The notes: generated by a model from the letters alone, not told the origin. A stretch of DNA of 32,000 nucleotides from Methylorubrum extorquens (GCA_900234795.1 LT962688.1:5610001-5642000), one strand, 5' to 3'. Numbered from the stretch's first letter, positions 1 to 16,113 are shown. A program made the numbers and translations.

Positions 1-708
1 GCCGCCGAGGATGATCATCGTCTTGGCGTTGCGGATATCGTTGTAGGAGTTCGTCTGGGCGCCGTAGCCCCAGGTGTTGGCCACGCCCGCCACCGTGGTC
101 GAGTGGCAGATGCGCGCCTGATGGTCGATCGAGTTCGTGCCCCACAGGGCCGCGAACTTGCGCATCAGGTAGGAGGCCTCGTTGGTGAACTTGGCCGAAC
201 CCAGCCAGTAGACCGAGTCGGCGCCGTTCTTCTCGCGGATCTGGACCAGCTTGTCGCCGATCTCCTCGTAGGCCTGATCCCACGAGATTCGCTTCCACTG
301 CCCGCCTTCGAGCTTCATCGGGTACTTGAGGCGGCGGTCGGACGAGACGAGCTCGCGGATCGCCGCGCCCTTGGCGCAGTGCGTGCCGCGGTTGATCGGG
401 CTGGCATAGGACGGCTCCTGGCCGACCCAGACGCCGTTCACGACTTCGGCCGTCACCGTGCAACCCACCGAGCAGTGGGTGCAGACGTTCTTCTTGATGA
501 CCGTGTCCGGTCCGACGGCGGAGGAGCCGGCGGCCTGCGCCTTGCGCACCGAGCCGAGCTGGATCGTGCCGGCCGCGGCGAGCGCGCCGGCGGTCAGCCC
601 GGACTTGCGGAGGAAGGCGCGGCGGTCGAGCACGCCCGCGGCGAGGCCGGCGGCGACGGCCTGGTGCTTGGTGCGAGCAGCGTCGCCGCTCTTGCGCTTG
701 ATCAGCAT
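1..708 (-). CDS. Formate dehydrogenase catalytic (alpha) subunit, FdnG/FdoG-like molybdopterin oxidoreductase; N-terminal 236 codons only, continues past the window edge
   Basis: Own minus-strand translation from the ATG at 706-708. It gives MLIKRKSGD...LDRRAFLRKSGLTAGALAAAG (twin-arginine signal) and CTHCSVGCTV...NRGTHCAKG (N-terminal 4Fe-4S Cys motif). It also gives HQARICHSTTVAG, the active-site motif, with Cys where E. coli FdnG has Sec. It is absent from the ORF track because it is open at the edge. Confidence 0.9.
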   Translation of the reverse strand, partial: MLIKRKSGDAARTKHQAVAAGLAAGVLDRRAFLRKSGLTAGALAAAGTIQLGSVRKAQAAGSSAVGPDTVIKKNVCTHCSVGCTVTAEVVNGVWVGQEPSYASPINRGTHCAKGAAIRELVSSDRRLKYPMKLEGGQWKRISWDQAYEEIGDKLVQIREKNGADSVYWLGSAKFTNEASYLMRKFAALWGTNSIDHQARICHSTTVAGVANTWGYGAQTNSYNDIRNAKTMIILGG

Positions 709-715
709 GGCAGCC

Positions 716-961
716 TCACTTCGGACCGGTGGAAGCCGGATCAGTGTTCTTCTTCAGCGTCTCGTAGCCGTTGGTCCGGTAGAACGCCTTCACGTGGTCG
801 CTCTCCCGGTAACGGGCCTTGGTCTCGTCGTTGCCCGGATCGTAGGCCTGGGCCTCGGTCGCCCCCATCGGCGAAGCGACGGCGGCCGCGGCGGCCACCG
901 TGCTGCCGCCGAGCGCCCGAAAGAACTGGCGACGACCGAGCGTCTTCGGATCCTGTCGCAT
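716..961 (-). CDS. Small twin-arginine-signal protein of the formate dehydrogenase region (TIGR02811-like 'formate dehydrogenase region TAT target')
   Basis: ORF 716..1000. The internal start MRQDPKTLGRRQFFRALGG... at 961 is preceded by GGAGGAGACGAGGGTG (a Shine-Dalgarno sequence). It has an RRxFF Tat motif and sits 7 nt upstream of the FDH alpha start. An alternative start is at 1000. Confidence 0.75.
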   Translation of the reverse strand: MRQDPKTLGRRQFFRALGGSTVAAAAAVASPMGATEAQAYDPGNDETKARYRESDHVKAFYRTNGYETLKKNTDPASTGPK

Positions 962-1037
962 CACCCTCGTCTCCTCCGGCGGCTGCCTGCTCTGGGGCAA
1001 CGCGCCTCGATTTCATTTGTCACGACGGAGCAGCCCT

Positions 1038-1673
1038 TCAGCCTTCCATGGCGAAAGCTTCCGCCTCGATCTCGATAAAGGCGCGGCCGAGCCCCCCGAC
1101 CGCGCGGTAGAACCGGCCCGCCTTCGCCTTTTCCAGGTCCGCGAAGAAACGGTCCGCCCAGGGTTCGATGTGCCGGGCGAAGAAGTGCGCCTGCATGCCG
1201 GGCTCCGCCTCGAACCGCCCCGCCGCGAGCCCGGCCATCACCTCCAGAAGGATCGCGAGATGATCCTCCGGCTCGCTCATCGACTCGTCCCGCTCGATCC
1301 CGAGCGCGGCGAAGTCTTCGCGCACGCGGGCGAGCGGACGCTCGTTGAGGAAGCCGGTGAGGTAGTAGGAGGCGTAAGGCAGAAGCTCGCCGCGACCGAC
1401 GCCGATGAACAGCGCGAAGAACTCGCGCTCGACGGACTCCGTATCGGTCTCGGCGGCCGCACGGCGCAGGGCCGCGACCTGTCGGCCCAGAACCCCGTCG
1501 CCCTCCTTCACGGCGGCGAGCGCCGCGAGCAGCGACGAACCCGGTGCCCGGCCGAGCAGCGCGGCCAAGAGATCGTATTGCTGCGCGCGCAGGAGGTCGA
1601 TCTCGTCCGGAACGCCGACGACTCCAGACACCTCATCTCCCGGAAGTGCCATCACCGACGCGACCGAACTCAT
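1038..1673 (-). CDS. TorD/DmsD-family redox-enzyme maturation chaperone
   Basis: 211-aa ORF. The REFFALFIGVGRGELLPYASYYLTGFLNERPLARVREDF and EPEDHLAILLEVMA motifs are typical of TorD-like chaperones. GAGGGAAACG lies before the ATG. The position directly upstream of a Tat-dependent molybdoenzyme fits. Confidence 0.85.
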   Translation of the reverse strand: MSSVASVMALPGDEVSGVVGVPDEIDLLRAQQYDLLAALLGRAPGSSLLAALAAVKEGDGVLGRQVAALRRAAAETDTESVEREFFALFIGVGRGELLPYASYYLTGFLNERPLARVREDFAALGIERDESMSEPEDHLAILLEVMAGLAAGRFEAEPGMQAHFFARHIEPWADRFFADLEKAKAGRFYRAVGGLGRAFIEIEAEAFAMEG

Positions 1674-1760
1674 CGTTTCCCTCGGGCCCGCCTGGAGGAC
1701 CGCTTGTTTGGATCGATAATAAAAAGCGTTTGGCTTTGCCGCAATCGAAATGCGCGTGAA

Positions 1761-2471
1761 TTACGAGGGCATCGCCCCACCATGGCGCCGCAGGCGAGGC
1801 CGGGGGAGGGTGGATTGTACGACCTCAGGGGACTCGACGGCGGCAACCGCGACCGGAGCGTGCAGGTCCGGCATCGGAAGCGGAACGCCGTCGGTTTCAG
1901 GGGCGGTCTCGGGTTCCAGGGGCGCTGCGTCGGCGATCTGCGGAGCTTCCTCCGACGCCGCCGTGGGAGCGTCCTGCGGCTCGGTATCCGGTTCCTCCTC
2001 CGCCGGGACGGGGACACCGTCGATGATCCGCTTCAGCATCGCCTTCACGTCGTCGGTCGGCAGGAGCGGGCCCATGCCCGGCACGCCGCCGGGCGTGTTC
2101 CAGTCATAGGCGTATTCCCGCGCCTCGCTGACGAAGTCGCGGATCGCCGGGTCGAGCGACCACATCCGCCGCAGGGCCGCGTTGCGCAGGGCCGTCGGCA
2201 CGCCGGACTGGAGGAAGGCGGTGAGGTCGGTCTCCGGCGTCAGGGCGTCGAGCGAGGGAAGCCGCGCCAGAAGATCGTCCGTTCCCGCCTCCGGTTCATC
2301 GCCGGTCAGGACGACAGGCTGCGGCGGAGGTGATCCCTCGCCGGTATGCGCCTCCGCATCGAGAGCGGCCTTCGCCTCGACCTCATCCGTGACGGCGGGC
2401 GCAACGGTGCGCTCGGTGGCGCGCACGGCCTCCTTGCGGCGGGCCCATCGGGAGAGGAAGCTGCCGCTCAT
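1761..2471 (-). CDS. DUF3306-like protein
   Basis: 236-aa ORF with a basic N-terminus (MSGSFLSRWARRKEA), an acidic Pro/Glu-rich linker and a conserved-looking core (LRRMWSLDPAIRDFVSEAREYAYDWN). Its start overlaps the upstream stop (ATGA at 2468-2471). The family name is from memory. Confidence 0.8.
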   Translation of the reverse strand: MSGSFLSRWARRKEAVRATERTVAPAVTDEVEAKAALDAEAHTGEGSPPPQPVVLTGDEPEAGTDDLLARLPSLDALTPETDLTAFLQSGVPTALRNAALRRMWSLDPAIRDFVSEAREYAYDWNTPGGVPGMGPLLPTDDVKAMLKRIIDGVPVPAEEEPDTEPQDAPTAASEEAPQIADAAPLEPETAPETDGVPLPMPDLHAPVAVAAVESPEVVQSTLPRPRLRRHGGAMPS

Positions 2472-2986
2472 TCTGGCTTCCCCTGCGTGCCGGGGGCGCG
2501 GCGCGCCAGGGCCTCGGGATCGGCGCGGTCGCGCTTCCGCTTCTCGAACTTGCGCTCGATGTGGAAGGCCTCGAAGAAGGCGAGCAGCTTGGCCTGCACT
2601 TCGGGCGGCATCGGCACCGCCTCGACGATCTCGCCGATACCCTCGGCCATCGATTCGCCCTCGTAGGGATCGGCGGTCACGCTCGCCACCGTGTAGGTGT
2701 CCTCCGATGTGGCGTGGAGCGTGACCCAGAGCGAGGGGCGGCCGGAGACGAGGTTGTCGCGGTAATGCGCCGTCTCGCCGATGTGCAGCGTGACCTCATG
2801 GGCGCCCGCGTAGAAGGTCGCCTCCTCCTCGGTCTCGGAGAGCTGGGTCCAGAGCGCGGTCTCCGGCGCTGCCGGAAGTGCCTCGACCGGCAGCCAAGCG
2901 TGGCTCGCCCACGGCCCTTTGAGGCGGCGGCGCGCCACAATGATGCCGACCTCGAAGCGGTCTTCCGGGATCTGTTCCGGCGTCAT
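2468..2986 (-). CDS. DUF3305-like protein
   Basis: Internal ATG (2984-2986) of track ORF 2468..4030. This gives 172 aa, MTPEQIPEDRFEVGIIVARRRLKGPWASHAWLPVE...VTADPYEGESMAEG. The upstream extension of that ORF is Arg/Ala/Gly-rich antisense shadow of the 2995..4005 gene. Confidence 0.8.
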   Translation of the reverse strand: MTPEQIPEDRFEVGIIVARRRLKGPWASHAWLPVEALPAAPETALWTQLSETEEEATFYAGAHEVTLHIGETAHYRDNLVSGRPSLWVTLHATSEDTYTVASVTADPYEGESMAEGIGEIVEAVPMPPEVQAKLLAFFEAFHIERKFEKRKRDRADPEALARRAPGTQGKPE

Positions 2987-2994
2987 GTCCGACC

Positions 2995-4005
2995 TCACGC
3001 GGCGGCCCGGTCGGAGGCCAGCGGCAATCCGACCACGAGGTTCTGTGGTTTGAGCTGCACGGTCTTGTCCGGCGACATGGCGAGCAGGAGATAGACCGGC
3101 CGCTCGCCGACCCGCGGATCGACGCGGGCCGGATCGGCGAAGGTGAGGCTGAACACCGCGATCACCCGCTCGCGGGCGGCGTCGTCCAGCATCTCGCCGC
3201 GCCAGAGCGCGTTGCCGATCCGCGTGCCCTCCGCGTCGAGCCCGACGAACCAGCGCCAGTCGGGATCCTCGAGCCGGTCGAGGGGCTTCACCGTGACCTC
3301 GGCGTTGAGGAGGTGACGCACGAAGGCCTCGATCGCCCGCGCCAGCCCGTCCCGGCTTCGGCCGCTGGAGCCGAGGTTCAGCGCCATGGTGAAGGCGTCC
3401 GACCGGCTCCAATAGGTCCAGGCGTTCTCCTCGTTGAGCACGTCGAGTTCGCTCGCCGCCTCCTTGCCGAGCATCGTGACCAGGGGCGAGAGCGGCGCGC
3501 CGCCCTCCCGCGCCTCGATCACCTCGGCATCGGCGAGCAGCACCGCGCCCTCGTGCAGGCTGGCGCGCTGGGAGCGGAAGAACAACTCGGCGGCACGCAG
3601 CACGAACGGGTCTTCGCAGCCGTCGAGCGCGTTGCGCAGGATGAGATGCACGAGTTGGATCAGGAACAGCCCCGGCACGCCCTGCAACCCGCCGCGCACG
3701 AGCGCGAGATAGGCCGCCTCGACCGAGCGGGCCGTGAGCAGCCGCTCGCGAAAGGCCAGCATCACCTCCCAGTTCTCCCGCGCATCCGCGTCCGCGATTT
3801 TTTGGAGTTCGCCGGTCGAGACGGGTCGGCGTGGGTCGCTCAGAAGGCTGGCGTGCAGCGCGCGTTCGGCCGTGCAGGCCTCCTCCGGCGGCACCAGTTC
3901 GGGGCGCGCGAGATAGGCGAGGATCAGCTCGTCGGTGACGGCGAGACCGCCCCCTTCCGTCCGCTGCGTCAGGTGATGGCCGCTCGATACCCAGAACTCG
4001 GTCAT
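2995..4005 (-). CDS. Conserved hypothetical protein (recalled as DUF6352-like; unverified)
   Basis: 336-aa ORF with normal amino-acid composition and codon bias, no signal peptide and no TM segment. Its start overlaps the upstream stop (ATGA at 4002-4005). It ends 8 nt before the DUF3305 start. Confidence 0.7.
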   Translation of the reverse strand: MTEFWVSSGHHLTQRTEGGGLAVTDELILAYLARPELVPPEEACTAERALHASLLSDPRRPVSTGELQKIADADARENWEVMLAFRERLLTARSVEAAYLALVRGGLQGVPGLFLIQLVHLILRNALDGCEDPFVLRAAELFFRSQRASLHEGAVLLADAEVIEAREGGAPLSPLVTMLGKEAASELDVLNEENAWTYWSRSDAFTMALNLGSSGRSRDGLARAIEAFVRHLLNAEVTVKPLDRLEDPDWRWFVGLDAEGTRIGNALWRGEMLDDAARERVIAVFSLTFADPARVDPRVGERPVYLLLAMSPDKTVQLKPQNLVVGLPLASDRAAA

Positions 4006-4568
4006 GCTCTCTCAGCCCCCGCGGAGGCATCGCTCAAAAGTCCCACGAGGTCGGCCTGTTCGTCTGGCCCGTCCTCGTCGGTCTCGACGAAGTGGAAGGC
4101 GCGTCCGTGCATCGGGTCCGCGCCCGGTGCGCGCTGGTGCAGGGTGCGGAATTCCTCCGCGATTTCCCCATCCTGCGCGCTTCGGTGCATGGCCACGACG
4201 CTGCCGACCGGCAGATTGCACAGCGAGGCCGCGACCTCGATCTCCTCGCGCGCGGCGGCGCGGGCCGCCTCGCGATCCGGGGCGCCAAAGCGCTCGTGAA
4301 TATGGCGGGCGAGATCCTCGATCGCCGCCTCGCGCTCGGCCTCGCTCGCCTCGCTGACGACGACCAGGGTCGAGAAGCCGAGGGAGCGCACGCCAACGAA
4401 ACCGGAACGGAACGCCGCCCGCTCCTTGCCGGCAAGCGCCGAGAGGTCGGCATCGAAGAACAGGAACGAGCCCGTCACCGCCCATTCGCCGGCCTCGGCG
4501 GCCCGCGCGAAGACGAAGGTGTCGGAGGGGTCGAGCCGCAGGGTCCGCGGCAGCTTGCCCACACTCAC
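4002..4568 (-). CDS. Conserved hypothetical protein (recalled as DUF6505-like; unverified)
   Basis: 188-aa ORF with acidic, cytoplasmic-looking composition. Its GTG start overlaps the upstream stop (GTGA at 4565-4568). Confidence 0.7.
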   Translation of the reverse strand: MSVGKLPRTLRLDPSDTFVFARAAEAGEWAVTGSFLFFDADLSALAGKERAAFRSGFVGVRSLGFSTLVVVSEASEAEREAAIEDLARHIHERFGAPDREAARAAAREEIEVAASLCNLPVGSVVAMHRSAQDGEIAEEFRTLHQRAPGADPMHGRAFHFVETDEDGPDEQADLVGLLSDASAGAERA

Positions 4569-5344
4569 AGCCGCACCGTGCCGGAGACCGGGTCGCGCCA
4601 GGAGGGGGCGGCCAGCGCCGGCCGCAGCGGAAGCGTCTCACTGCGGCCGTCGGCGTGGACGAGCCGGGCATCGCCGCTCGGCTCGATCGTCGCCCGCACG
4701 CCCGGCGGCAGCGCGAGGCGGGTGAGATAGCGGCCCGTCGAGCGCGCGGCGCCGTCCTCGTCCCAGATCTCGAACGCCTTGGTGAGATGGCGGGCGAAGC
4801 TCTCGACCAGGGCTTCGCGCAGGTCGTTCGGGAACCCCTCTTCCTCCAGGGAGGTCGAGTCGGGCGTGAGGCCGGGATCGCCCGCATCCCGCTTCGAGGC
4901 GAGCAGCATCGCCGAGAAGACGAGCCAGTCCGGCGTCTCGGTCTCGTCGCAGCCCTCGGGCCAATGCAGCGCGCCGCCGCCGAGACGGGCGCCGTTGAAG
5001 CTCAGCGTATCGGGCCAGTGGAGCGTCACGGGGATTTCCGGTGGCCCGAAGGCGCCGACCGCGTCGGCGAGCGCCTGCATCCCGATGAAGATGGCACGCC
5101 GCGCCGTGGCCAGCGGCTCGGTCGGCGCCAGCACCACCGCGAAGGCGATGACGTCGTCGCGCTCTTCCATGAGGAGGGTGGCGGCATCCGCCTCGCCGCT
5201 CTCCGCCATCCGGCAGGCCAGCCCGGCCGCGGAGCCCGCCGCGACGAGACCGGTGAAGGCCGGCGGCAGGACGAGCGGCGCGAGGCGCAAACTCGGCGAT
5301 CCGATATCGAGGGGGAGGGTCATAGGCGGTCTCGGGCGGGGCAC
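4565..5344 (-). CDS. Biotin/lipoate protein ligase (BPL_LplA_LipB) family-like protein, divergent
   Basis: 259-aa ORF with a GTG start at 5344 (alternative ATG at 5323). VTLHWPDTLSFNGARLGGGAL resembles the KWPND(L/V)..(K)K(L/I)(A/C)G motif of BirA/LplA. I see no GRGRxGR-type loop. It is the first gene of the coupled operon. Confidence 0.65.
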   Translation of the reverse strand: MPRPRPPMTLPLDIGSPSLRLAPLVLPPAFTGLVAAGSAAGLACRMAESGEADAATLLMEERDDVIAFAVVLAPTEPLATARRAIFIGMQALADAVGAFGPPEIPVTLHWPDTLSFNGARLGGGALHWPEGCDETETPDWLVFSAMLLASKRDAGDPGLTPDSTSLEEEGFPNDLREALVESFARHLTKAFEIWDEDGAARSTGRYLTRLALPPGVRATIEPSGDARLVHADGRSETLPLRPALAAPSWRDPVSGTVRL

Positions 5345-5463
5345 GGTCCCGGGAAGAGTACCTGCGCCCGCATGTCCGTTCGTCGTTTTAGAATGATACG
5401 ATTATAAGGAAGGCAGGCTTCCGCGCGAAGGCCCTCGCGCTCCCAATCGTCTCAGGTTCAATC

Positions 5464-7503
5464 GTGTCCGATCGTCTCGTGTTCGCCTGTTCCTGCGAGA
5501 AGACGATGCCGCTCGATGTCGCGGCCCTGGAAAAGGGTTGCGGTACCCGCGTGCGCACCGCCGACCAGCTATGCGGTCGGGAACTCGACCGTTACCGCGA
5601 GGCTCTCGCGACGGGCTCGCCCGTCACAGTCTCCTGCACGCTCCAGGCGCCGCTCTTTGAAGAGATCGCCGCCGAGATGGAGGCGGAGGAGCGCGTCACC
5701 TTCGCCAAGATCCGCGAGACCGCCGGATGGTCGTCTCAGGCCGAACGGGCCGGTCCGAAGATGGCGGCTTTGCTGGCTGCGGCCGCGGAGGCGGTCCCCG
5801 TCGCCGGCACGGTGCCGCTGGAGAGCCGCGGTGTCACCCTGATCTACGGGCGCGATGAGGCCGCCATCGAGGCCGGGCGGCGTTTGGCCGAGCATCTCGA
5901 CGTCACCGTGCTGCTCAGCTGGCCGGGCGAGGTCGCGCCGCTCCATCGCAACGAGTTCCCGGTGATCCGGGGTACGGTGCGCGGGGCGACGGGCCATCTC
6001 GGCGCGTTCGACCTGCGCATCGACGACTACGCCCTGCCGGCGCCGTCCTCGCGCACCCACCTCGTGTTCGGGTCGGGGCGCGACGGGGCGGTTTCGACCT
6101 GCGACCTGATCCTCGACCTCACCGGCGGCACGCCGCTCTTCCCCGCGCACGAACTGCGCAGCGGGTACCTGCGCGCCGACCCGCGCGACCCGGCGGCGGT
6201 CGAGCGCGCGGTGATGGCGGCGTCCCACCTCGTCGGCGAGTTCGACAAGACGCGCTTCATCGATTTCCGCGGCGAGCTCTGCGCCCATTCCCGCTCGCGC
6301 ATCACCGGCTGCACCCGCTGCCTCGACGTCTGCCCGACCGGGGCCATCTCGCCCGCCGGCGATACGGTGGCGATCGACCCCTATGTCTGCGCCGGCTGCG
6401 GCAGTTGCGCCGCCGTCTGCCCCACGGGGGCGGCCAACTACGCCCTGCCGCCGGCCGACGCGCTGATGCGCCGCCTGCGCAGCCTGTTGCGCGCCTACCG
6501 GGCAGCCGGCGGTGCGGACGCGGTGGTGCTGTTCCACGACGGCGACCATGGCGAGCCGCTGATCGACGCACTCGCCCGCTATGGCGAGGGCCTCCCGGCC
6601 CACGTCCTGCCGGTGCGGGTCAACGAGGTGACGCAGTTCGGGCCCGAGGTTCTGGCCGCCCTGTTCGCCTATGGTGCGGCTGGGGCGCGGGTGCTCGTGC
6701 GTGAGCGCCCGAAGCACGACCTCGACAGTCTGCACCGCACCGTCGCGCTGGGCCGGACGCTCGCCGACGCGCTCGGCTACGGCGCCGGCACGGAGGCGCC
6801 GACCGTCGCCCTGATCGAAACCGACGACCCCGATGCGCTCGGCGCGGCGCTCCGCTCGGACGTTCCCGGCCGGGCGACCACGGCGCCGGCCGGCTTCGTG
6901 CCCGTCGGCGGCAAGCGCGAGATGCTGCGCCTCGCCTTCCGCGAGATGCATGCCGCGGCCCCGACGCCGGTGGCCGCGGTGCCTTTGGCGGCCGGGGCGC
7001 CGTTCGGCGGGCTCCAGTTTCGCACGGAGGACTGCACGCTCTGCCTCTCCTGCGTCGGCGCCTGCCCGACCCACGCGCTGTCGGACAGCACCGACCGGCC
7101 GCTCTTAGCCTTCGAGGAGAGCCTTTGCGTGCAGTGCGGCCTGTGCGCGGCCACCTGCCCGGAGGACGTGATCAGCCTGAAGCCGCAGATCGACTTCGAG
7201 GCTTGGGCCGAGCCCCGCCGGATCGTGAAGGAGGAGGAACCGTTCTGCTGCATCACCTGCGCCAAGCCGTTCGGCACCCGCGCCACCATCGAGCGGGTGA
7301 TCGGCAAGCTGCGCGAGCGGCACTGGATGTTCTCAGGGGAGGCCGGTGAGCAGCGCATCCGCTCGCTGATGATGTGCGACGATTGCCGCGTCGAGGCGGC
7401 CCTGACCCAGGGTTTCGACCCGCACGCCGTGCCGCCGGCCAAGACGCGCACCACCGAGGACTACCTGCGCGAGCGGGAAGCCGCCGGTCGGCTGCCAGGA
7501 TGA
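5464..7503 (+). CDS. Large 4Fe-4S poly-ferredoxin-like protein (679 aa)
   Basis: It has two 2x[4Fe-4S] modules. The first is CTRCLDVCP (about 6310-6336) plus CAGCGSCAAVCP (6388-6423). The second is CTLCLSCVGACP (7033-7068) plus CVQCGLCAATCP (7126-7161). There is an N-terminal FACSCEK...C cluster and a C-terminal CCITC...CDDC pair. It is divergent from the BPL-like operon. Confidence 0.85.
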   Translation: MSDRLVFACSCEKTMPLDVAALEKGCGTRVRTADQLCGRELDRYREALATGSPVTVSCTLQAPLFEEIAAEMEAEERVTFAKIRETAGWSSQAERAGPKMAALLAAAAEAVPVAGTVPLESRGVTLIYGRDEAAIEAGRRLAEHLDVTVLLSWPGEVAPLHRNEFPVIRGTVRGATGHLGAFDLRIDDYALPAPSSRTHLVFGSGRDGAVSTCDLILDLTGGTPLFPAHELRSGYLRADPRDPAAVERAVMAASHLVGEFDKTRFIDFRGELCAHSRSRITGCTRCLDVCPTGAISPAGDTVAIDPYVCAGCGSCAAVCPTGAANYALPPADALMRRLRSLLRAYRAAGGADAVVLFHDGDHGEPLIDALARYGEGLPAHVLPVRVNEVTQFGPEVLAALFAYGAAGARVLVRERPKHDLDSLHRTVALGRTLADALGYGAGTEAPTVALIETDDPDALGAALRSDVPGRATTAPAGFVPVGGKREMLRLAFREMHAAAPTPVAAVPLAAGAPFGGLQFRTEDCTLCLSCVGACPTHALSDSTDRPLLAFEESLCVQCGLCAATCPEDVISLKPQIDFEAWAEPRRIVKEEEPFCCITCAKPFGTRATIERVIGKLRERHWMFSGEAGEQRIRSLMMCDDCRVEAALTQGFDPHAVPPAKTRTTEDYLREREAAGRLPG

Positions 7504-7512
7504 GCACAAAAA

Positions 7513-7557
7513 ACGACCCGCCATCGCATCGAGGGCAGGTCGGATAGGGGGTCTTTT
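7513..7557 (+). terminator. Possible intrinsic terminator after the poly-ferredoxin gene
   Basis: An A-run (7507-7512) precedes the stem CGACCCGCC (7514-7522) / GGCAGGTCG (7534-7542, one mismatch). An alternative stem is GACCC/GGGTC, followed by TCTTTT (7552-7557). The geometry is ambiguous. Confidence 0.35.
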
Positions 7558-7718
7558 GTCGCAGGAGAACAGTTCGTCAAACCCTGGAGTGCTGGCTGGT
7601 TCCGCGGTTCGCGCGCCGAGGACGGGGAAACGGCGGAAAATGTAACCGGCGATCGCGGGGTTCGCGGCCCCGATCGCCGTGCTATAGCGCGCCGCCCATT
7701 CGTCAGCCCCGAGCCCCG

Positions 7719-8641
<923 letters not shown>

Positions 8642-8645
<4 letters not shown>

Positions 8646-9421
8646 TGGGCGTATCCATGCTGAACGTCCCGGCGGTCCTCGCCATCTACCGTTTCGAGAT
8701 GGCCCGGTTCTGGCGCACCGCCTTGCAGAGCATCGTCGCGCCGGTGATCTCCACCTCGCTCTATTTCGTGGTGTTCGGCGCCGCCATCGGCTCGCGGATG
8801 CAGACGGTCGACGGCGTTCCCTACGGCGCCTTCATCGTTCCGGGGCTCATCATGCTCTCGCTGCTGACGCAGAGCGTCTCGAACGCCGCCTTCGGCATCT
8901 ATTTCCCGCGCTTTGCCGGCACGATCTACGAACTGCTCTCGGCGCCGATCTCGCCGTTCGAGGTGGTGCTCGGCTATGTCGGCGCGGCGGCGACGAAGTC
9001 GATCATCATCGGCCTCATCATCCTCGCCACGGCCTCGCTGTTCGTGCCGCTGCACATCGAGCACCCTTTCTGGATGGTGTTCTTCCTGCTGCTCACGGCG
9101 CTGACCTTCAGCCTGTTCGGCTTCGTGATCGGCCTGTGGGCGGACGGGTTCGAGAAGCTGCAACTGGTGCCGCTCCTCATCGTCACGCCGCTGACATTCC
9201 TCGGCGGCAGCTTCTACTCCATCGACATGCTGCCCCCGTTCTGGCGCGCGGTGACCCTGTTCAATCCGGTCGTCTACCTCGTCAGCGGCTTCCGCTGGGC
9301 CTTCTTCGGCAAGGGCGACGTGGCGGTTGGGGTCAGCATCGCCGCGACGCTGGCGTTCCTCGCCCTGTGCCTCGGGCTCGTGACCTACATCTTCCGCACG
9401 GGGTACCGGCTGAAGAGCTGA
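8642..9421 (+). CDS. ABC-2 type transporter permease (YadH-like)
   Basis: 259 aa with about six hydrophobic segments. Its start overlaps the ATPase stop (ATGA). Confidence 0.9.
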
Positions 9422-9445
9422 ATCCGGACAGGGGTGGCGATCCGC

Positions 9446-9910
9446 TCAGAGCGGGCGCACAGCGTCGAGCGTCAGCGTCCGTGCCGCCGCCCCGCATCCG
9501 AGAACGCGGAGCGAAACGCTCTTGCCCACGTTCAGCAGGGTTTCGAGGGAGTGCTTGACCGCGCCGTTGGTGGCGGCGTCGAGATTGCGATAACCGTCCT
9601 CGACGTTGATGAAGCTTCGCTGGCCGGATTTCTCCTCGACGATGACCGACTCGAGAGAGAGCCCGTCGCGGCCGAACGCCCGCACCACCACCCGGCCCGC
9701 CAGCTTGGCCGGAAGGCAGCCTTCATCGGTCGAGAGGTTGCTCAAGCCGACCACCTTGCCTGCGGCATAGGTGAGCTTCGGCTGCGCCAGGGCGGTGCCG
9801 CCGAACACCAGCAGGAGGATGGCCAGGACGATCAGGGCGTTGGCGAGCGCATCCGCCACCACCGAGCGGAGAACGCCGTCCGCGGATGTTTGCGAAGTCC
9901 GACCCGGCAT
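9446..9910 (-). CDS. Hypothetical exported or membrane-anchored protein
   Basis: It has an N-terminal hydrophobic segment (ALANALIVLAILLLVFGGTALA-QP) and then a soluble domain of about 110 aa with two Cys. I do not recognise a family. An alternative start is at 9934. Confidence 0.5.
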   Translation of the reverse strand: MPGRTSQTSADGVLRSVVADALANALIVLAILLLVFGGTALAQPKLTYAAGKVVGLSNLSTDEGCLPAKLAGRVVVRAFGRDGLSLESVIVEEKSGQRSFINVEDGYRNLDAATNGAVKHSLETLLNVGKSVSLRVLGCGAAARTLTLDAVRPL

Positions 9911-10048
9911 GACCCATTCCCGAAGAATGGCCACAGCTTAAGGGCGGATCGGGCTCCGGGCGCAGTCCGTCAAACGATCTACCACCAATAGGCCGTTCGG
10001 ACTGGCGCGGGAGCCGACGGGACAGACTCTGCCCCGTGACGCGCGCCG

Positions 10049-10825
10049 CTACGGACGCTGCTCCAGGAATTCCAGCACGCCCTTGCGGTGCAGCCGGTCG
10101 CCGACCGCCGTCGAGTGGTCGCGGTTCGGCAGATCGAGGGCGCGGGCGTTCGGCAGCAGCTTCACCAGTTCCGGGCCCGAGCCCGCCACCGTGTCGAGCG
10201 TGCCGACCGAGACCAGGGTCGGCGTCTCGATCGCCGAAAGTTCGGCCCGTGACAGGGTCTGGCGTGAGGCGCGGATGCAGGCGGCTAGCGCCCGCAGGTC
10301 GCTCTTGGTCTGCTCGGCGAAGGTGCGGAAGGAGGCGGCCGTCGGGTTCGGTGCGGGCACGCCGGCGGGCGCTTCCAGTGCCTCGGCGATGCCCTGCGGC
10401 AGGCCGCGCCCGTCCACGAGGTTGAAGCCGAGGCCGCCGATCAGCAGCGAGCGGACCTCCGCTGGATAGTCGAGCGCCATATGCGCGGCGATTCGTGCGC
10501 CCATGGAATAGCCCATCACGTCCGCCCGCTCGATGCCGAGATGGCGTAGCAGCCGCACCGCGTCGCCGGCCATCTGGTCGGAGGTGTAGGATGCGGGATC
10601 GTAGAGCTTCTCGCTCTGCCCGTGGCCGCGGTTGTCGTGGGCGATGACCCGGTAGCCGGCCTCGGTCAGCGTGCGGACCCAGAGCGTATTGACCCAGTTC
10701 ACCGCGTGGTTCGAAGCGAAGCCGTGGATCAGGAGGACGGGATCGCCGCTGCCGCCGGAGGCACCTTCCTTGGCTGGTACGTCAATATAGGCGATCTGCA
10801 CGCCGTCGGAGTCGAAGCTCTGCAT
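10049..10825 (-). CDS. Alpha/beta-fold hydrolase
   Basis: It has the oxyanion-region motif LLIHGF, the nucleophile elbow GYSMG and a late NRDH motif. Length is 258 aa. Confidence 0.85.
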   Translation of the reverse strand: MQSFDSDGVQIAYIDVPAKEGASGGSGDPVLLIHGFASNHAVNWVNTLWVRTLTEAGYRVIAHDNRGHGQSEKLYDPASYTSDQMAGDAVRLLRHLGIERADVMGYSMGARIAAHMALDYPAEVRSLLIGGLGFNLVDGRGLPQGIAEALEAPAGVPAPNPTAASFRTFAEQTKSDLRALAACIRASRQTLSRAELSAIETPTLVSVGTLDTVAGSGPELVKLLPNARALDLPNRDHSTAVGDRLHRKGVLEFLEQRP

Positions 10826-10964
10826 CCCGATGTCTTCGGGTGCCGGCGCGCCGTTGTCAAAGGCGGCGATGGTGCTTCGTGCGACAACGGACGGCGTTTG
10901 GCGCGTCGCGCTCGATGGCGCCCGACTTGCCGCGGCTGCGCCGGGCTGGCATCACCCCGGCACG

Positions 10965-11810
10965 ATGACGGACACCTCGCCCTACGGCACCTACGCCCCC
11001 ACCGGCCTCGTTGCGCGGATCGCGGAGCGCACCCAGAAGCTCCCCGAGCATTCCTGGCGTGCGCGGCGGATGGCGATGTTCCTGCGCCGCCTCGCCATCT
11101 CGATGATGCGCGGCCGGCCGCTCGACGTCGAGCGCTACGGCGCGCGGATGCGGCTGCACCCCTACAACAACAACTGCGAGAAGAAGGTGCTCTTCACCCC
11201 GCAGTTCTTCGATCCGCAGGAGCGGGCCTTCCTCAAGGAGCGCCTGCGCGACGATGCGGTGTTCCTCGACATCGGCGCCAATATCGGCGCCTACGCCCTT
11301 TTCGTGGCGGGCTTCACTGGCCGGCGCGCGCGCATCCTCGCGGTGGAGCCGCAGCCCGACGTGTTCGATCGCCTGACCTTCAATATCGGCCAGAACCCGT
11401 TCGGCACGGTGAAGGCCATCGCCTGCGCGGTGGCCGACAAGTCGGGCGAGCTGACCCTGTTCATCGATCCGCGCAACCGTGGCGAATCGAGCGTGAAGAT
11501 CGTCGGCACCCACAAGAACGCGACGGTGCGCGTGCCGGCGGTGACGCTGGTGGAGCTGTGCCGTTCGGAAGGGATCGAGCGCATCGACGCGATCAAGCTC
11601 GATGTCGAGGGCGCCGAGGATCTGATCCTGGAGCCGTTCCTGCGCGATGCGCCGGCCTCCCTGCTCCCGTCAGTGCTCGTTATCGAGAACGGCGCCGACC
11701 AATGGCAGATCGACCTGCCGAACCTGCTGAACAAGTACGGCTACCGCCAAATCGCCCGCACGCGGCTCAACCTGATGTTCGAGCGGGTTGAACCGTCGCG
11801 CCCGGCGTGA
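10965..11810 (+). CDS. FkbM-family methyltransferase
   Basis: It has VFLDIGANIGAYALF (SAM-binding glycine-rich motif), AVEPQPDVFDRL and DAIKLDVEGAEDLIL. The ATG at 10965 is preferred over the track start at 10830, which would leave only 4 nt to the divergent hydrolase gene. Confidence 0.8.
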   Translation: MTDTSPYGTYAPTGLVARIAERTQKLPEHSWRARRMAMFLRRLAISMMRGRPLDVERYGARMRLHPYNNNCEKKVLFTPQFFDPQERAFLKERLRDDAVFLDIGANIGAYALFVAGFTGRRARILAVEPQPDVFDRLTFNIGQNPFGTVKAIACAVADKSGELTLFIDPRNRGESSVKIVGTHKNATVRVPAVTLVELCRSEGIERIDAIKLDVEGAEDLILEPFLRDAPASLLPSVLVIENGADQWQIDLPNLLNKYGYRQIARTRLNLMFERVEPSRPA

Positions 11811-12513
11811 GGATCGGGACGGGCGTGTCGATGGCGACGCCCTCCGGCCCGACCGCGCAGGTATAGGCGTAGGCCTCAACGCCCACTTCCAGCGCCATGC
11901 GGAGCGCGCGATCGAAGACCGGGTCGATGTCGCGGGCGACGTCGAAGGCGCCTGCCCGCATCTGGATCACCACGATCAGCATCGCCCGTCCGCCCGCGGT
12001 GACGACGCCGGCCAACTCCTCCATGTGGCGGGCCGAGCGGGCGGCCTTGCAATCGGGAAATTCCGCGAGGCCTGCCTGGCGCATGAGGTGGCAGTTCTTC
12101 ACCTCGACATGGCAGGGCAGCAAGCCGCCGCCGCTCGCCAGGAAATCGACCCGGCTCGCCTTGCCGTAGGCGACTTCCGGCCGGAGCGTCTCGTAGCCGA
12201 TCAGGGGCGCGAGCTTGTTCTCGCGGAACGCCTCTGCGACGAGGGCATTGGGCCGGGCGGTGTTGATGCCGACCCATTGCGGCCCGCCGGGCAGCTCTGC
12301 CTCCACCAACTCCCACGAGTACCCGAGCTTTCGCGAAGGATTGGTCGAGGGCGAGAGCAGTACCCGAAACCCTTCGGCGTTGAGCCCCAGCATCGCGCCT
12401 GGGTTGGCGCAATGCGCGGTCACCATCGTGCCGTCGACCAGCGTTACATCGGCGAGGAAGCGCTTGTAGCGCCGCACGAGGCGCCCTTCGATCAGGGGAG
12501 TGGGGAAACGCAT
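11767..12513 (-). CDS. sfsA: Sugar fermentation stimulation protein homolog SfsA
   Basis: MRFPTPLIEGRLVRRYKRFLADVTL...HCANPGAMLGL...VEVKNCHL is a typical SfsA sequence. Length is 248 aa. Confidence 0.85.
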   Translation of the reverse strand: MRFPTPLIEGRLVRRYKRFLADVTLVDGTMVTAHCANPGAMLGLNAEGFRVLLSPSTNPSRKLGYSWELVEAELPGGPQWVGINTARPNALVAEAFRENKLAPLIGYETLRPEVAYGKASRVDFLASGGGLLPCHVEVKNCHLMRQAGLAEFPDCKAARSARHMEELAGVVTAGGRAMLIVVIQMRAGAFDVARDIDPVFDRALRMALEVGVEAYAYTCAVGPEGVAIDTPVPILTPGATVQPARTSG

Positions 12514-12596
12514 CGCGGGCCGGGGCGGAACGAGGGGCTTTCGCTTTCGCGCATCCGCGCCCTAGCTTCCACCCCGATCATCGCCCCCGAGGCCGC

Positions 12597-13335
12597 ATGC
12601 CCCAGAGTTCAGACGTCACCGCCGCCATCCTCGTCATCGGCGACGAGATCCTTTCGGGCCGCACCAAGGACAAGAACATCGGCACCATCGCCGAGGTGCT
12701 GACCGAGATCGGCGTGGACCTGCGCGAGGTGCGCATCGTGCCGGATGTGAAAGACGAGATCGTCGCCGCGGTGAACGCGCTGCGGGCGCGCTACACCTAC
12801 GTCTTCACCTCCGGCGGCATCGGCCCGACCCACGACGACATCACCGCCGACAGCGTGGCGGAGGCCTTCGGCGTCGGCATCGACGTCGATCCGCGGGCCC
12901 GCGCCATGCTGTTGGAGCGGCACCGGCCGGAGGATCTCAACGCGGCGCGCCTGCGCATGGCCCGCATCCCCGACGGGGCCGACCTGATCGCCAACCCCCG
13001 TGTCGAAGGCGCCGGGCTTCCGGCTCGGCAACGTCTTCGTCACGGCCGGCGTGCCGCAGATCATGGCGGCGATGCTCGACGAGATCCGCCCGACGCTGAC
13101 GGGCAACGCGCCGGTGATGTCGGAGACGATCGAGGCGGGTGCGATCCCCGAGGGCAACTTCGCCGGCGGCCTCTCCGACATCGCCGCCGCACATGGCGAC
13201 GTCTCGATCGGCTCCTATCCGTCGATGACGCCGGAGGGGTTTCGCAATCGCATCGTCGTGCGCGGCCGGGACGCGAACGCGGTGGCGGCCGCGCGGGCGG
13301 CGGTGGAGGCCTTGCTGGCCGGACTTCGGTCTTAG
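12597..13335 (+). pseudogene. CinA-like / MoCF-biosynthesis (MoaB-MogA fold) domain protein, interrupted by a +1 frameshift
   Basis: The N-terminal part (12597 frame) reads AILVIGDEILSGRTKDKN...FTSGGIGPTHDDIT...RIPDGADLIANP. The C-terminal part (frame of 13000) reads VSKAPGFRLGNVFVTAGVPQIMAAML.... The two join into one ordinary protein of about 246 aa if one C is removed from the C5 run at 12995-12999. Confidence 0.75.
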
Positions 13336-13345
13336 GCATTTCGCT

Positions 13346-13363
13346 TCCGGCCCCCCGGCCGGA
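13346..13363 (+). terminator. Hairpin after the CinA-like gene
   Basis: TCCGGCC-cccc-GGCCGGA is a 7-bp GC stem, 10 nt after the stop at 13335. It has no clear U-tract. Confidence 0.35.
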
Positions 13364-13447
13364 TCCCATGAAATAAATCTCTGCCGGCTGGGAGCGCGCA
13401 AGCGCTGCCATACGTTGGGCTGCGACGAGACGACCGCCGAGGGCCGC

Positions 13448-14335
13448 ATGTCCCAGGAATCCTGTACGCACGGAGACCCGGACGACCAGGGTGAAGCGAA
13501 GACCCACGGCGCCCATACCCGCGAGAAGGACAATGCCCAGGTCGAGAAGGCCCACCGCCCGGACGCGCTGATCCTGCACGAGATCATCCGGCGGGAAGGC
13601 GAGGAGGAGATGCGCCGCACCTGGCTGGCCCTCTCGCTCTCGGGGTTCGCCGCCGGGTTGACCATGGGCTTCTCGCTGATCGTGCCCGGCGTGCTCAAAG
13701 GGCATCTGCCGCACGCGCCCTGGGCCGAACTCGTTACCAGCGCGGGCTATTCGATCGGCTTCCTCATCGTCGTGCTCGGCCGCCAGCAGCTCTTCACAGA
13801 GAACACGGTCACGCCGATCCTGCCACTTCTGACCGAGAGGACCTTCGGTGCGTTGCTGCGGGTCGTGCGGCTCTGGGGCATCGTGCTCGTCGCCAACATC
13901 CTGGCGACGATCGCCATCGCCTCGGTGCTGGCCCATACCGATGCGTTCAAACCGGAGGTGCGGGAGGCCTTCGCCGAGATCAGCCGCCACACCATCGAGG
14001 ACCCGTTCTGGACCACAGTGATCAAGGCGGTGTTCGCAGGCTGGCTGATCGCCCTGATGGTATGGATCCTGCCGGCCTCGGGCTCGGCGGCGCCCTTCAT
14101 CATCATCCTGATGACGTGGCTGGTCTCGATGTGCGGGCTCGCCCACATCGTCGCCGGCTCGGTCGATGCCTATTACCTCGTCGCCATCGGCGAGATCGAT
14201 TTTTCGAAGTACCTCACCGGGTTCTTCGTCCCGACGCTGCTCGGCAACATCGTCGGCGGCGTGACGCTCGTCTCGGTGCTCAATTTCGGGCAGGTGGCGC
14301 CCGAGATCGAGGATCACAATCGCGTCGGCGCCTGA
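13448..14335 (+). CDS. Formate/nitrite transporter (FNT) family protein, YfdC-like
   Basis: It has six hydrophobic segments. The motifs GRQQLFTENT and GLAHIVAGSVD and the C-terminal LLGNIVGG are typical of the FNT family. The ATG at 13448 is preferred (track start 13415). Confidence 0.8.
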   Translation: MSQESCTHGDPDDQGEAKTHGAHTREKDNAQVEKAHRPDALILHEIIRREGEEEMRRTWLALSLSGFAAGLTMGFSLIVPGVLKGHLPHAPWAELVTSAGYSIGFLIVVLGRQQLFTENTVTPILPLLTERTFGALLRVVRLWGIVLVANILATIAIASVLAHTDAFKPEVREAFAEISRHTIEDPFWTTVIKAVFAGWLIALMVWILPASGSAAPFIIILMTWLVSMCGLAHIVAGSVDAYYLVAIGEIDFSKYLTGFFVPTLLGNIVGGVTLVSVLNFGQVAPEIEDHNRVGA

Positions 14336-14381
14336 GCGTGCAGGGGCGCCACCGCTTAATGCCCCGGCAGCGGCGGATCGA

Positions 14382-15500
14382 TCAGGCCGCCGGCGGCTCC
14401 GGCTCGCTGGCGAAATGCTTCGAGAGCTTCAGCCCCTGCGCCTGATAGTTCGAGCCGGCGCCCGCGCCGTAGAGGGTCGCGGGTCGTTCGAGCATGCGCT
14501 CGTAGACGAGGCGGCCGACGATCTGGCCGTCTTCCAGGAGGAACGGCACGTCGCGCGAGCGCACTTCGAGCACCGCACGGGCGCCGGCCCCGCCCGCTTC
14601 ACTGAGGCCGAAGCCCGGATCGAAGAAGCCGGCATAGTGGACGCGGAACTCGCCGACCAGGGGATCGAACGGCACCATCTCGGCCGCATAATCGGCCGGC
14701 ACCCGCACCGCCTCCTTCGAGGCCAGGATGTAGAACTGGCCGGGATCGAGGATCAGCGTGCGGCTGCCGTCGGCCGGCAGCGGTTCCCAGAAGTCGCGGG
14801 TTCGGTGACCGCGCGGCCGGTCCACGTCGATCAGACCGGTATGGCGCTTGGCCCGGTAGCCGATCAGCCCCTCGAAGCCTGCGAGATCGACCGAGACCGG
14901 CACGCCGCCCTGAAGCGAGGGGGTTGCGGCATCGATCAGCGGGTCGCTGGCGTGAAGCGCGGCCAGTTCCGTCTCCCGCAGCCGCGGGTCGCCCTGGCGG
15001 AAGCGGATCTGCGACAGGCGCGAGCCGGTCCGCACCCGCACCGGGAAGGTTCGCGGTGAGATCTCGGCGTAGAGCTGACCGGCATAGCCTGCCTCGATCT
15101 GGTCGAAGGCGCTGGCGCGGTCGGTGATGACGCGGGTGAACACGTCGATGCGCCCGGTCGAGCTTTTGGGGTTGGCGCTGGCGCTGAGATCGGGGGGGAG
15201 CGCCAGGGTTTCCTGCAATTCGGCGATGTAGACGCAGCCCGTCTCCAGCACGGCGCCCTGCGTCAGGTCGATCTCGTGCAGCGCGAAAGCCTCGACGCAG
15301 GTCGCGACCGAGCGCCCGCTGCCGGGCAGGAAGCTCGTGCGCACCCGGTAGGCGCGGCGACCGAGCCGCAGGTCGAGGCTGGCGGGCTGGATCTGGTCGG
15401 CGGCATAGGCGGTCGCGGGGCGGATCGCCCCGGCTTGCGTCAGCGCCGTGATGGCCTGCGCCGGCAGGATACCGGATGTGGCCGGCACGTCTCCGCTCAT
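14382..15500 (-). CDS. 2'-deoxycytidine 5'-triphosphate deaminase, long (about 370 aa) DCD family form
   Basis: 372 aa. The N-terminus GILPAQAITAL...IQPASLDLRLG and the later FRVHYAGFFDPGFG match the double-domain alphaproteobacterial dCTP deaminase family (PF06559, from memory). Confidence 0.8.
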   Translation of the reverse strand: MSGDVPATSGILPAQAITALTQAGAIRPATAYAADQIQPASLDLRLGRRAYRVRTSFLPGSGRSVATCVEAFALHEIDLTQGAVLETGCVYIAELQETLALPPDLSASANPKSSTGRIDVFTRVITDRASAFDQIEAGYAGQLYAEISPRTFPVRVRTGSRLSQIRFRQGDPRLRETELAALHASDPLIDAATPSLQGGVPVSVDLAGFEGLIGYRAKRHTGLIDVDRPRGHRTRDFWEPLPADGSRTLILDPGQFYILASKEAVRVPADYAAEMVPFDPLVGEFRVHYAGFFDPGFGLSEAGGAGARAVLEVRSRDVPFLLEDGQIVGRLVYERMLERPATLYGAGAGSNYQAQGLKLSKHFASEPEPPAA

Positions 15501-15946
15501 CGTCCCGTTCCCTCGCCTTTGCGTTTGGCCTCGGCCTCCGCGCGCTCCGCCGCCTCGATGGCGACGACCATCCGTGCCAGCGCGAGCCGGGCGCAGGCGC
15601 CCATCGCCACGAGACCGGCGAGCGCGCTCGCGAGCAGCGGAAACAGATCGGGCCGCAGATAAGATACGCCCGCCACCACAAGCGCACCGATCCCCATCGC
15701 CTTGCCAAGCGCCAGCATCGGCGTAGGCAGGCCGCGGATCTCAGTCTCCACGCCCGTCCGCTGCCGGACGGCCCGAGCCGCGATCCGCGCGGCGGTATCG
15801 AGGCCGAGCGCCATCACGAGCGCGAGCGCCGGCCACCGGTTCTGAGCCGGGTCCCACCACGCGAAGGCAAGGGCGAGAGCGAGCGTCAGGACAGAGCCGA
15901 GAGCCGGCCCCGCCGCGAGGGGCGGGCGGTCGGGCCGCGTAGCCAT
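15497..15946 (-). CDS. Hypothetical small integral membrane protein
   Basis: The ATG at 15946 is preceded by GAGGGAG. It has about four hydrophobic segments and a charged tail (AERAEAEAKRKGEG). Its stop overlaps the dCTP deaminase start (ATGA at 15497-15500). Confidence 0.5.
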   Translation of the reverse strand: MATRPDRPPLAAGPALGSVLTLALALAFAWWDPAQNRWPALALVMALGLDTAARIAARAVRQRTGVETEIRGLPTPMLALGKAMGIGALVVAGVSYLRPDLFPLLASALAGLVAMGACARLALARMVVAIEAAERAEAEAKRKGEGTGR

Positions 15947-16113
15947 CAAGGCTCCCTCGAATTCTCCCCGGTGCGAAGCGTTCGGCACGTGGTCTCCGGC
16001 CTCCGCTCACCGTAGGATACCGTGATTGACGAGGTTTCTGGCGCCACGTACCACGGCGCGTCGCGGATGTCGCGATGCGGCCTGCGTGCCGTCCACGGAG
16101 ATGCTTTCACGCG

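Follow-up and report, generated by a model that had tools for sequence, protein, structure and literature searches.

Here we describe a gene cluster of Methylorubrum extorquens that joins a relative of biotin protein ligases (BPLs) and four proteins with domains of unknown function (DUF6505, DUF6352, DUF3305, and DUF3306) to the locus of a formate dehydrogenase (FDH) exported by the twin-arginine translocation (Tat) pathway. The cluster lies at the start of a 32,000-nt stretch of the genome (GCA_900234795.1 LT962688.1:5610001-5642000), referred to below as the window, and all positions are those of the whole stretch. The G+C content of the region is ~70%, and the nearest relatives of the window belong to Methylorubrum and Methylobacterium. 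A preliminary description made from the sequence alone had placed eight minus-strand genes head to tail at this site and had assigned them to families. Our list of open reading frames (ORFs) and their translations agree with this layout, and each family label proved correct in Pfam searches, with all scores far above the gathering score. These genes and their junctions, along with a divergent gene that had been omitted, are as follows:

1-708, minus strand: FDH alpha subunit (FdhA) of the FDH3 type, N-terminal 236 residues, cut by the window end (translation)
716-961, minus strand: small twin-arginine protein (FdhX-like), TIGR02811 'formate dehydrogenase region TAT target', 55.2 bits against a cutoff of 48.45
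1038-1673, minus strand: TorD/DmsD-family chaperone (FdhT-like), Pfam Nitrate_red_del, E 1.9e-32
1674-1760, minus strand: 87-nt gap between the DUF3306 gene and torD, read in the sequence
1761-2471, minus strand: DUF3306 protein, start overlapping the DUF3305 stop, Pfam E 2.3e-20
2468-2471, minus strand: ATGA overlap of the DUF3305 and DUF3306 genes, read in the sequence
2468-2986, minus strand: DUF3305 protein, beginning 8 nt past the DUF6352 stop, Pfam E 4.9e-38
2987-2994, minus strand: 8-nt spacer between the DUF6352 and DUF3305 genes, read in the sequence
2995-4005, minus strand: DUF6352 protein, start overlapping the DUF6505 stop, Pfam E 1.7e-56
4002-4005, minus strand: ATGA overlap of the DUF6505 and DUF6352 genes, read in the sequence
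4002-4568, minus strand: DUF6505 protein, start overlapping the BPL-like stop, Pfam E 1.1e-54
4565-4568, minus strand: GTGA overlap of the BPL-like and DUF6505 genes, read in the sequence
4565-5344, minus strand: BPL-like protein, PF16917 (BPL_LplA_LipB_2) plus a BirA-C-like tail, Pfam E 4.5e-60
5464-7503, plus strand: 679-aa polyferredoxin, predicted to be cytoplasmic, with 27 Cys and two 2x[4Fe-4S] regions (Pfam Fer4 families)

The four junctions that couple the five upstream genes had all been given correctly in the preliminary description, and the same gene overlaps are found again in Methylorubrum, Sinorhizobium, and Bradyrhizobium loci. Likewise, the claim that none of the five proteins carries a signal peptide was sustained. 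Kyte-Doolittle analysis found neither a signal nor a transmembrane segment in any of them (maximal 19-residue mean below 1.6, versus 2.55 for FdhC), and the five are predicted to be cytoplasmic. An earlier study labeled DUF3305 and DUF3306 proteins as putative membrane proteins (Bay et al. 2015; PMC4464133), an assignment we reject because their sequences contain no transmembrane or signal segment. We also rejected a 520-aa ORF at 2468-4030 (minus strand) as a high-GC artefact; it overlaps the whole DUF6352 gene in another frame, and its real part is the last 172 codons, which constitute the DUF3305 gene. Two genes are likely to start downstream of the first position of their longest ORF. For the BPL-like gene, ATG 5323 is more likely than 5344, because homologues begin MTLPLD and a 99%-identical protein (P0001) has 252 aa, and for the small Tat gene (ORF 716-1000), ATG 961 is more likely, yielding an 81-aa protein as in relatives.

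Judged by its sequence and surroundings, the enzyme encoded downstream is a periplasmic, Tat-exported Mo/W formate dehydrogenase of the FDH3 type, the same kind as Shewanella FdhT-FdhX-FdhABC (PMC13066108). The locus contains a TorD-family chaperone, a TIGR02811 protein with an RRQFF motif, and an FdhA with a Tat motif (DRRAFLRKS), and the relatives add fdh3B and a cytochrome b gene. The chaperone, whose Shewanella counterpart is named FdhT (PMC13066108), scores below the cutoffs of the NCBIfam TorD/DmsD models. At the active-site position, FdhA has Cys, not Sec (ARICHST), and the fragment is 97% identical to the 980-aa FdhA of locus L001. FdhB and FdhC lie outside the window, and the downstream order is taken from close relatives (loci 83-94% identical), in which the operon encodes an FdhA of 980 aa followed by an Fe-S subunit (198 aa) and a cytochrome b (345 aa). 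PGAP annotates the beta subunit of Sinorhizobium, Bradyrhizobium, and roseobacters as 'formate dehydrogenase FDH3 subunit beta'.

The BPL-like protein belongs to the BPL superfamily, as had been proposed from its sequence. It scores 202.8 bits against PF16917 (cutoff 27) across profile positions 1-182 of 183, and it matches Protein Data Bank (PDB) entry 3BFM (E 3.7e-22). A profile of 33 diverse family members matches Staphylococcus aureus BirA (E 1.7e-6 over 175 positions) and Escherichia coli BirA (E 6.4e-4), and an hhalign comparison with the E. coli protein (E 9.4e-4) aligns 137 columns, including the C-terminal domain. Neither LplA, with its Lys133, nor LipB, with its Cys169/Lys135 dyad, gave a significant hhalign match (probabilities of 0.2% and 0.1%, over only 11-12 columns), and in Pfam searches at E <= 10, the protein did not cross-match the canonical PF03099. 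It is 94% identical to its counterpart in Methylobacterium sp. Leaf123, and its identities to the M. podarium and M. rhodesianum proteins are 82-85%. The family is of moderate size, with 682 representatives at 50% identity (E <= 1e-3), and all members bearing an organism name are alphaproteobacterial.

In BirA, a catalytic Lys and a Gly/Arg-rich loop are both needed for making the acyl-adenylate. Neither of these features of a functional biotin protein ligase (EC 6.3.4.15) is found in the BPL-like protein. The window protein has Arg120 where E. coli BirA has catalytic K183 of the KxxG strand (hhalign), and in the profile alignment, the same residue, the 'r' of 'ngarvGg', falls on the Lys of S. 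aureus BirA 'DNGKVCG'. Arg120 is invariant among close relatives; across the 33 family members, the column is occupied by R, L, M, I, Q, T, V, G, H, A, K, F, or C. The preliminary description had pointed to a motif, WPDTLSFNGARLGGG, which is present, and had seen no GRGRxGR-type loop. Indeed, no GRG-type (Gly/Arg-rich, GRGRxGRxW) biotin/ATP loop occurs anywhere in the sequence; the BirA profile alignments start just past this loop, and the family consensus at its position is a short non-Gly-rich stretch of ~6-8 residues. Because the catalytic Lys and the Gly/Arg loop are both lost, the protein is very probably a BirA relative that is not a ligase, and the pseudo-enzymatic character suggested for it at the outset stands. 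Post-translational modification by this protein is unlikely; no biotinyl/lipoyl acceptor domain was detected in the genes scanned with Pfam, which cover the initial ~15.5 kb of the window, or in the gene calls of related loci.

Comparison with structurally characterized proteins places these losses in context. The BirA ligases of E. coli (1BIA) and S. aureus (3V7C/4DQ2) share with the BPL-like protein the core of the catalytic domain and the C-terminal domain; retained as well are the WP(N/D) strand and the xxGG that comes after it. Unlike BirA, the BPL-like protein also lacks an N-terminal helix-turn-helix domain, and its gene resides in the FDH3 operon, not with biotin genes. The entry 3BFM, titled 'biotin protein ligase-like protein of unknown function', belongs to the same family, PF16917 (E 7.2e-64 to the family profile; ~35% identity). 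As a structural-genomics entry without an assigned function, it provides a fold but no mechanism; among the sequences examined, it is closest to the roseobacter-type proteins of the operon PolyFd-DUF6494-Mrp-BPL-DUF6505, in which PolyFd stands for the polyferredoxin. A precedent for a superfamily member kept without its chemistry is HisZ, the histidyl-tRNA synthetase-like regulatory subunit of ATP-phosphoribosyltransferase, in which the class II aminoacyl-tRNA synthetase/BPL fold serves as a binding or regulatory subunit and adenylate chemistry is lost. HisZ differs from the BPL-like protein in acting in another pathway, and the two have no sequence relationship past the superfamily.

A scan limited to one genome per species, made with an alignment narrower than the family-wide one, found a relative of the BPL-like protein in 363 genomes. 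Our counts derive from the best 80 of these 363 loci (at least 41% identity), in which the window proteins were placed by tblastn; for FdhA, we considered only loci in which the sequence extends 5 kb or more past the BPL-like gene. In this sample, the proteins of the window occur as follows:

FdhA, downstream: 60/61 informative loci, the only locus without it having a 99-N scaffold gap
Divergent polyferredoxin: 70/70 loci
DUF3305: 72/72 loci
DUF3306: 63/64 loci
DUF6352: 71/72 loci
DUF6505, its gene after the BPL-like gene (also in roseobacters): 65/72 loci

Beyond close relatives, all but one of the distant loci keep the genes beside FDH3, with order and strand reshuffled. The rearranged architectures include:

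Roseobacter plasmids: PolyFd-DUF6494-Mrp/NBP35-BPL-DUF6505, divergent from DUF3305-DUF3306-TorD-X-FdhABC, without DUF6352
Azospirillum brasilense: a 207-aa BPL core directly before DUF3305-DUF3306-TorD-X-FdhABC, with polyferredoxin, DUF6505, and DUF6352 genes all missing from the vicinity
Hartmannibacter and Breoghania: the BPL-like gene after FdhC and a WD40-cytochrome c gene
L095, L097, and L099 (metagenome-assembled genomes, MAGs, among the rearranged loci): a BPL-DUF6505-DUF6352-DUF6494 unit, apart from or joined to DUF3305-DUF3306-TorD-X-FdhAB

The tie between the block and a Tat-exported FDH, which a gene-neighborhood analysis was proposed to examine, is borne out both by the counts and by these rearranged yet clustered loci. 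Clustering through so much rearrangement is good evidence of a function shared with FDH3. Other neighbors in relatives include mobA, mobB, a moeA-like gene (glp), fdhD, a tungstate/molybdate-type ABC transporter, and Mrp/NBP35. Among plasmid records, the BPL-like gene occurs in 84 and DUF3305 in 88, and the taxon counts of the two are nearly equal.

These architectures also show that the five-gene block is two separable modules rather than one unit. Module A consists of the BPL-like protein with or without DUF6505, DUF6352, and DUF6494, and module B consists of DUF3305 and DUF3306, the latter always paired with the former in the loci examined. A shared operon for the two is confined to some Hyphomicrobiales and related lineages; in the lineage of the window, they are fused into one translationally coupled run. 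The preliminary description had envisaged a dedicated cytoplasmic module built around a repurposed or pseudo-enzymatic ligase fold. The predicted location and the degenerate ligase survive from that proposal, but the single module built on the ligase fold does not.

Several side observations concern the makeup of the set. One metagenomic ORF (P0411, 432 aa) combines BPL_LplA_LipB_2 with the C-terminal half of DUF6505; it may be a fusion or a frameshift artefact over the 4-nt overlap, and in view of the latter possibility, we did not count it as a fusion. Two more proteins recur in the set, a DUF6494 protein of 67 aa and an Fe-S carrier ATPase of the Mrp/NBP35 type, the latter in roseobacters (L006 10713-11992, L009 10726-11986, L095 12318-12524, L097 12415-12618, and L099 2690-2896 for the two together). 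Neither DUF6494 nor the Sulfitobacter Mrp has a tblastn match in the window at E < 1e-4. We considered and rejected the idea that DUF6352 and Mrp/NBP35 are simple substitutes for one another, as L087 carries both. In L076, a Xanthobacteraceae MAG (1024-17584), two FDH3 operons lie in tandem, the first preceded by the polyferredoxin and DUF3305 and the second by BPL-DUF3305-DUF3306, without DUF6505 and DUF6352.

The divergent polyferredoxin belongs to the set as well, because it is linked as tightly as any of the five genes; in roseobacters, it heads the operon that holds BPL-DUF6505. Its PDB matches are to ferredoxin domains only, and its matches to NapF-type NCBIfam models are weak.

Of the four DUF proteins, DUF3305 matches the C-terminal part of NCBIfam NF011058, 'MobA, DUF3305 domain-containing' (E 4.1e-19), a gene fusion that links DUF3305 to the last step in the synthesis of the bis-molybdopterin guanine dinucleotide (bis-MGD) cofactor. 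DUF3306 is mostly disordered: it has three short conserved motifs (N-terminal FLSRWSRRK, a central LP…AALRRxWxxDPxIRDF block, and C-terminal RRHGGAxP) with acidic, low-complexity linkers between them, an organization typical of tethers or adaptors. The N-terminal motif of DUF3306 contains a twin arginine with no hydrophobic region, and it is pure speculation that it could mimic a Tat leader and bind the TorD-family chaperone. DUF6352 is the most conserved of the five (70-93% identity across Methylobacterium), and its alignment contains conserved charged and His/Cys positions. Pfam scores place all four in their families (DUF6505, 184.7 bits; DUF6352, 192.3; DUF3305, 131; DUF3306, 74; cutoffs 23.9-25). 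Sequence searches of the PDB gave chance matches alone for all four, and a DUF6505 profile matched only antibodies there; in Pfam at E <= 10, the only sub-threshold match of DUF6505 was DUF7715. AlphaFold2 models of DUF6352 (pLDDT 81.8, pTM 0.85) and DUF3305 (pLDDT 84.7) are confident, but Foldseek searches of the two against the PDB found no fold match, with nothing below E 0.28 and, for DUF6352, no match at E < 1.

With moderate confidence, we propose that the genes encode a cytoplasmic set for FDH3 biogenesis or cofactor loading that includes a non-catalytic BPL-like binding protein. Cytoplasmic, enzyme-specific, and co-operonic helpers that act before Tat export are known for other molybdoenzymes, including NapF and NapD for NapA, TorD for TorA, and FdhD and FdhE for the E. 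coli enzymes FDH-N and FDH-O. The present system resembles these in possessing a TorD-family member, but NapF, NapD, FdhD, and FdhE have no homologue among the five proteins. In the proposed scheme, the target of the accessory proteins would be apo-FdhA/FdhB, on which they would act in the cytoplasm, ahead of Tat export. Module B would couple the last bis-MGD step, performed by MobA, to the TorD-bound apoenzyme, with DUF3306 serving as a flexible tether. The polyferredoxin may contribute to Fe-S or redox maturation, aided in some lineages (roseobacters) by the Mrp/NBP35 carrier, a role that would parallel the one proposed for NapF with NapA. Having very probably lost adenylate-forming chemistry, the BPL-like protein might act as a ligand- or protein-binding scaffold, that is, as a non-catalytic subunit. 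Besides the linkage to FDH3, the proposal draws support from the MobA-DUF3305 fusion, from genes for molybdenum-cofactor synthesis or molybdate/tungstate uptake close to the cluster in relatives, from the MoCF_biosynth-domain and FocA-like genes of the window, and from the joint expression changes of the Shewanella counterparts (PMC2535785). A more specific version of this scheme, which we offer tentatively and regard as doubtful, is that the BirA-like protein has been repurposed from the binding of an acyl-adenylate to that of a pterin cofactor in dinucleotide or adenylylated form (MGD, bis-MGD, or adenylylated molybdopterin, MPT-AMP). Together with DUF6505 and DUF6352, it would then form a hitherto undescribed, FDH3-specific machine for cofactor carriage and insertion, onto which DUF3305/DUF3306 dock MobA and TorD.

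Several points weigh against a biogenesis role. DUF6352 is missing in roseobacters and Azospirillum, and for both DUF6505 and DUF6352 there are lineages that do without it; because of these absences, neither is universally required. The 60/61 figure for FdhA comes from a sample that leans to the closest relatives of the window and is not an unbiased estimate for the 363 genomes. On one metagenomic contig (L101), the BPL-DUF6505-DUF6352 trio has no FDH within ~9-10 kb, and the Azospirillum lipoferum 4B plasmid AZO_p4 (L093, 9893-11066) carries an orphan DUF3305-DUF3306 pair whose surroundings, to a distance of 10 kb, lack FDH, TorD, and BPL-like genes. For DUF6505, DUF6352, DUF3305, and DUF3306, our sequence and structure searches found no relative of known function, and the molecular roles suggested for them are guesses for this reason. 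Our literature search found no experimental datum on any of the five proteins. Finally, single fdh3 mutants of M. extorquens reportedly have little phenotype, with other FDHs compensating, and such compensation would make an FDH3 accessory function hard to see.

Some of these same points could be taken to mean that the five genes serve another process and lie beside FDH3 merely through the shared ancestry of close genomes. The displaced trio, the orphan pair, and the composition of the 80-locus sample all favor this explanation; however, clustering persists through rearrangement in Hyphomicrobiales, Rhodobacterales, and Rhodospirillales, which shared ancestry alone does not explain, and we regard hitchhiking as highly improbable. 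Catalysis by the BPL-like protein fares little better. An active ligase or transferase that modified an FDH subunit or a DUF protein with biotin, lipoate, or a new acyl group would make the block a post-translational modification system, and membership in the BPL superfamily, the WP(D/N) strand, the GG after the Lys position, and the BirA-like C-terminal domain are what one would expect of it. The unconserved Lys column, the missing biotin/ATP loop, the failure to align significantly with LplA or LipB, and the lack of an acceptor domain in the genes surveyed all argue the other way, as does the reduction of the Azospirillum version to a 207-aa core, and activity of this kind appears very unlikely.

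Two further explanations retain the link to FDH3 and assign the set a different task. The BPL-like protein could be a ligand sensor or regulator that gates FDH3 assembly or expression in response to Mo/W, molybdenum cofactor (Moco), or formate, much as BirA senses biotinyl-AMP. Its homology to BirA extends through the C-terminal domain, and in L097, module A adjoins a ModE-like regulator and a molybdate/tungstate-type ABC transporter. The protein has no DNA-binding domain, however (Pfam detects PF16917 only), its ligand-contacting loop is lost, and translational coupling to DUF6505 and DUF6352 suggests a stoichiometric complex rather than a regulator; we consider a sensor unlikely. Alternatively, the set may be a working cytoplasmic redox partner in which the polyferredoxin and the BPL-like and DUF subunits serve the FDH3 system through reductive activation, repair, or electron exchange. 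The linkage of a 27-Cys polyferredoxin, divergent in 70/70 loci and co-operonic with BPL-DUF6505 in roseobacters, is consistent with such a function, and a WD40-cytochrome c fusion adjacent to the cluster in 59 loci suggests elaborate electron-transfer wiring. Against this, catalytic FdhAB is periplasmic, whereas these proteins carry neither a signal peptide nor a membrane anchor, and the cluster encodes no flavin or NAD(P) domain that could serve as donor or acceptor. Moreover, Azospirillum keeps BPL-DUF3305-DUF3306 without a nearby polyferredoxin, and the MobA-DUF3305 fusion indicates cofactor synthesis instead. We view a redox partnership as conceivable but improbable.

The WD40-cytochrome c fusion consists of a WD40 beta-propeller followed by a C-terminal c-type cytochrome (CSVCH) (for example, L094 8434-9840, L096 8025-9464, and L005 8516-9805). 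The gene lies directly 3' of FdhC in Hartmannibacter and Breoghania; neither the window nor its closest Methylorubrum relatives carry it. The fusion protein may be a periplasmic electron acceptor of FDH3.

Two noncoding segments of the locus contain elements conserved in an alignment of 15 loci:

Within the gap 1674-1760, minus strand: promoter-like element TTGCGG-17 nt-TATTAT, with the core AACGCTTTTTATTAT at 1716-1730
5345-5463, unstranded: divergent intergenic region shared with the polyferredoxin gene, containing a conserved block

The AT-rich element in the gap is spelled GATTGCGGC-N8-AAACGCTTTTTATTATCGATCC, and its core occurs once per locus, only in this gap, in 17 Methylobacterium/Methylorubrum loci and in the window. 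A promoter and terminator scan of the gap predicted neither. Its conservation and promoter-like spelling suggest that the element is probably an internal promoter or operator, and likely an internal promoter for torD-fdhX-fdhABC. A single transcript of all eight genes is therefore doubtful rather than assured. The block in the divergent intergenic region, TTCGCG…CATATACTCGTATCATTC(T)AAAAC(G/T)ACGAACGGACA, is found across Methylobacterium species and is a candidate for a shared regulatory site. An Rfam scan of positions 1-9000 found nothing, including no Moco riboswitch. Farther along the window, ~7-8 kb from the operon, lie a gene with a MoCF_biosynth domain (12597-13376, plus strand) and a FocA-like formate/nitrite transporter gene (13415-14335, plus strand); both neighbors are present in Methylorubrum rhodesianum too.

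The Pfam families, the PGAP gene names, and the existence of enzyme-specific accessory genes for Tat-exported molybdoenzymes were already known. In Shewanella, we take SO4504 and SO4505 to be DUF3306 and DUF3305 proteins, respectively. The association of DUF3305/DUF3306 with dmsD and fdh was published in 2015 (Bay et al.; PMC4464133). Expression of Shewanella SO4503-SO4509, which encode FdhD, two hypothetical proteins, an Fe-S protein, and FdhA, changes together (PMC2535785). The operons described by Bay et al. and the Shewanella FdhT-FdhX-FdhABC locus (PMC13066108) share with the window the type of FDH, a TorD chaperone, a small Tat protein, an Fe-S protein, and DUF3305/DUF3306 upstream; neither description mentions a BPL-like, DUF6505, or DUF6352 gene. 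Our literature search found nothing that names DUF6352, DUF6505, DUF4444, DUF6494, or their Pfam accessions, and nothing on the BPL-like gene, in keeping with the initial remark that no experimental description was known. What is new here is the components, the degenerate BirA fold, and the two-module architecture.

FDH3-type enzymes are widespread periplasmic formate dehydrogenases. The Shewanella enzyme is under development as an O2-tolerant catalyst for CO2 reduction (PMC13066108), and when metal-dependent FDHs are produced in heterologous hosts, maturation of the alpha subunit is limiting (PMC13396061). If the proteins described here are biogenesis factors specific to FDH3, they would supply what other hosts lack for the production of FDH3-type enzymes, and Mo/W-cofactor biology would gain new protein families, among them a degenerate biotin-ligase fold. 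The hypothesis is directly testable in M. extorquens, in which FDH mutant backgrounds exist.

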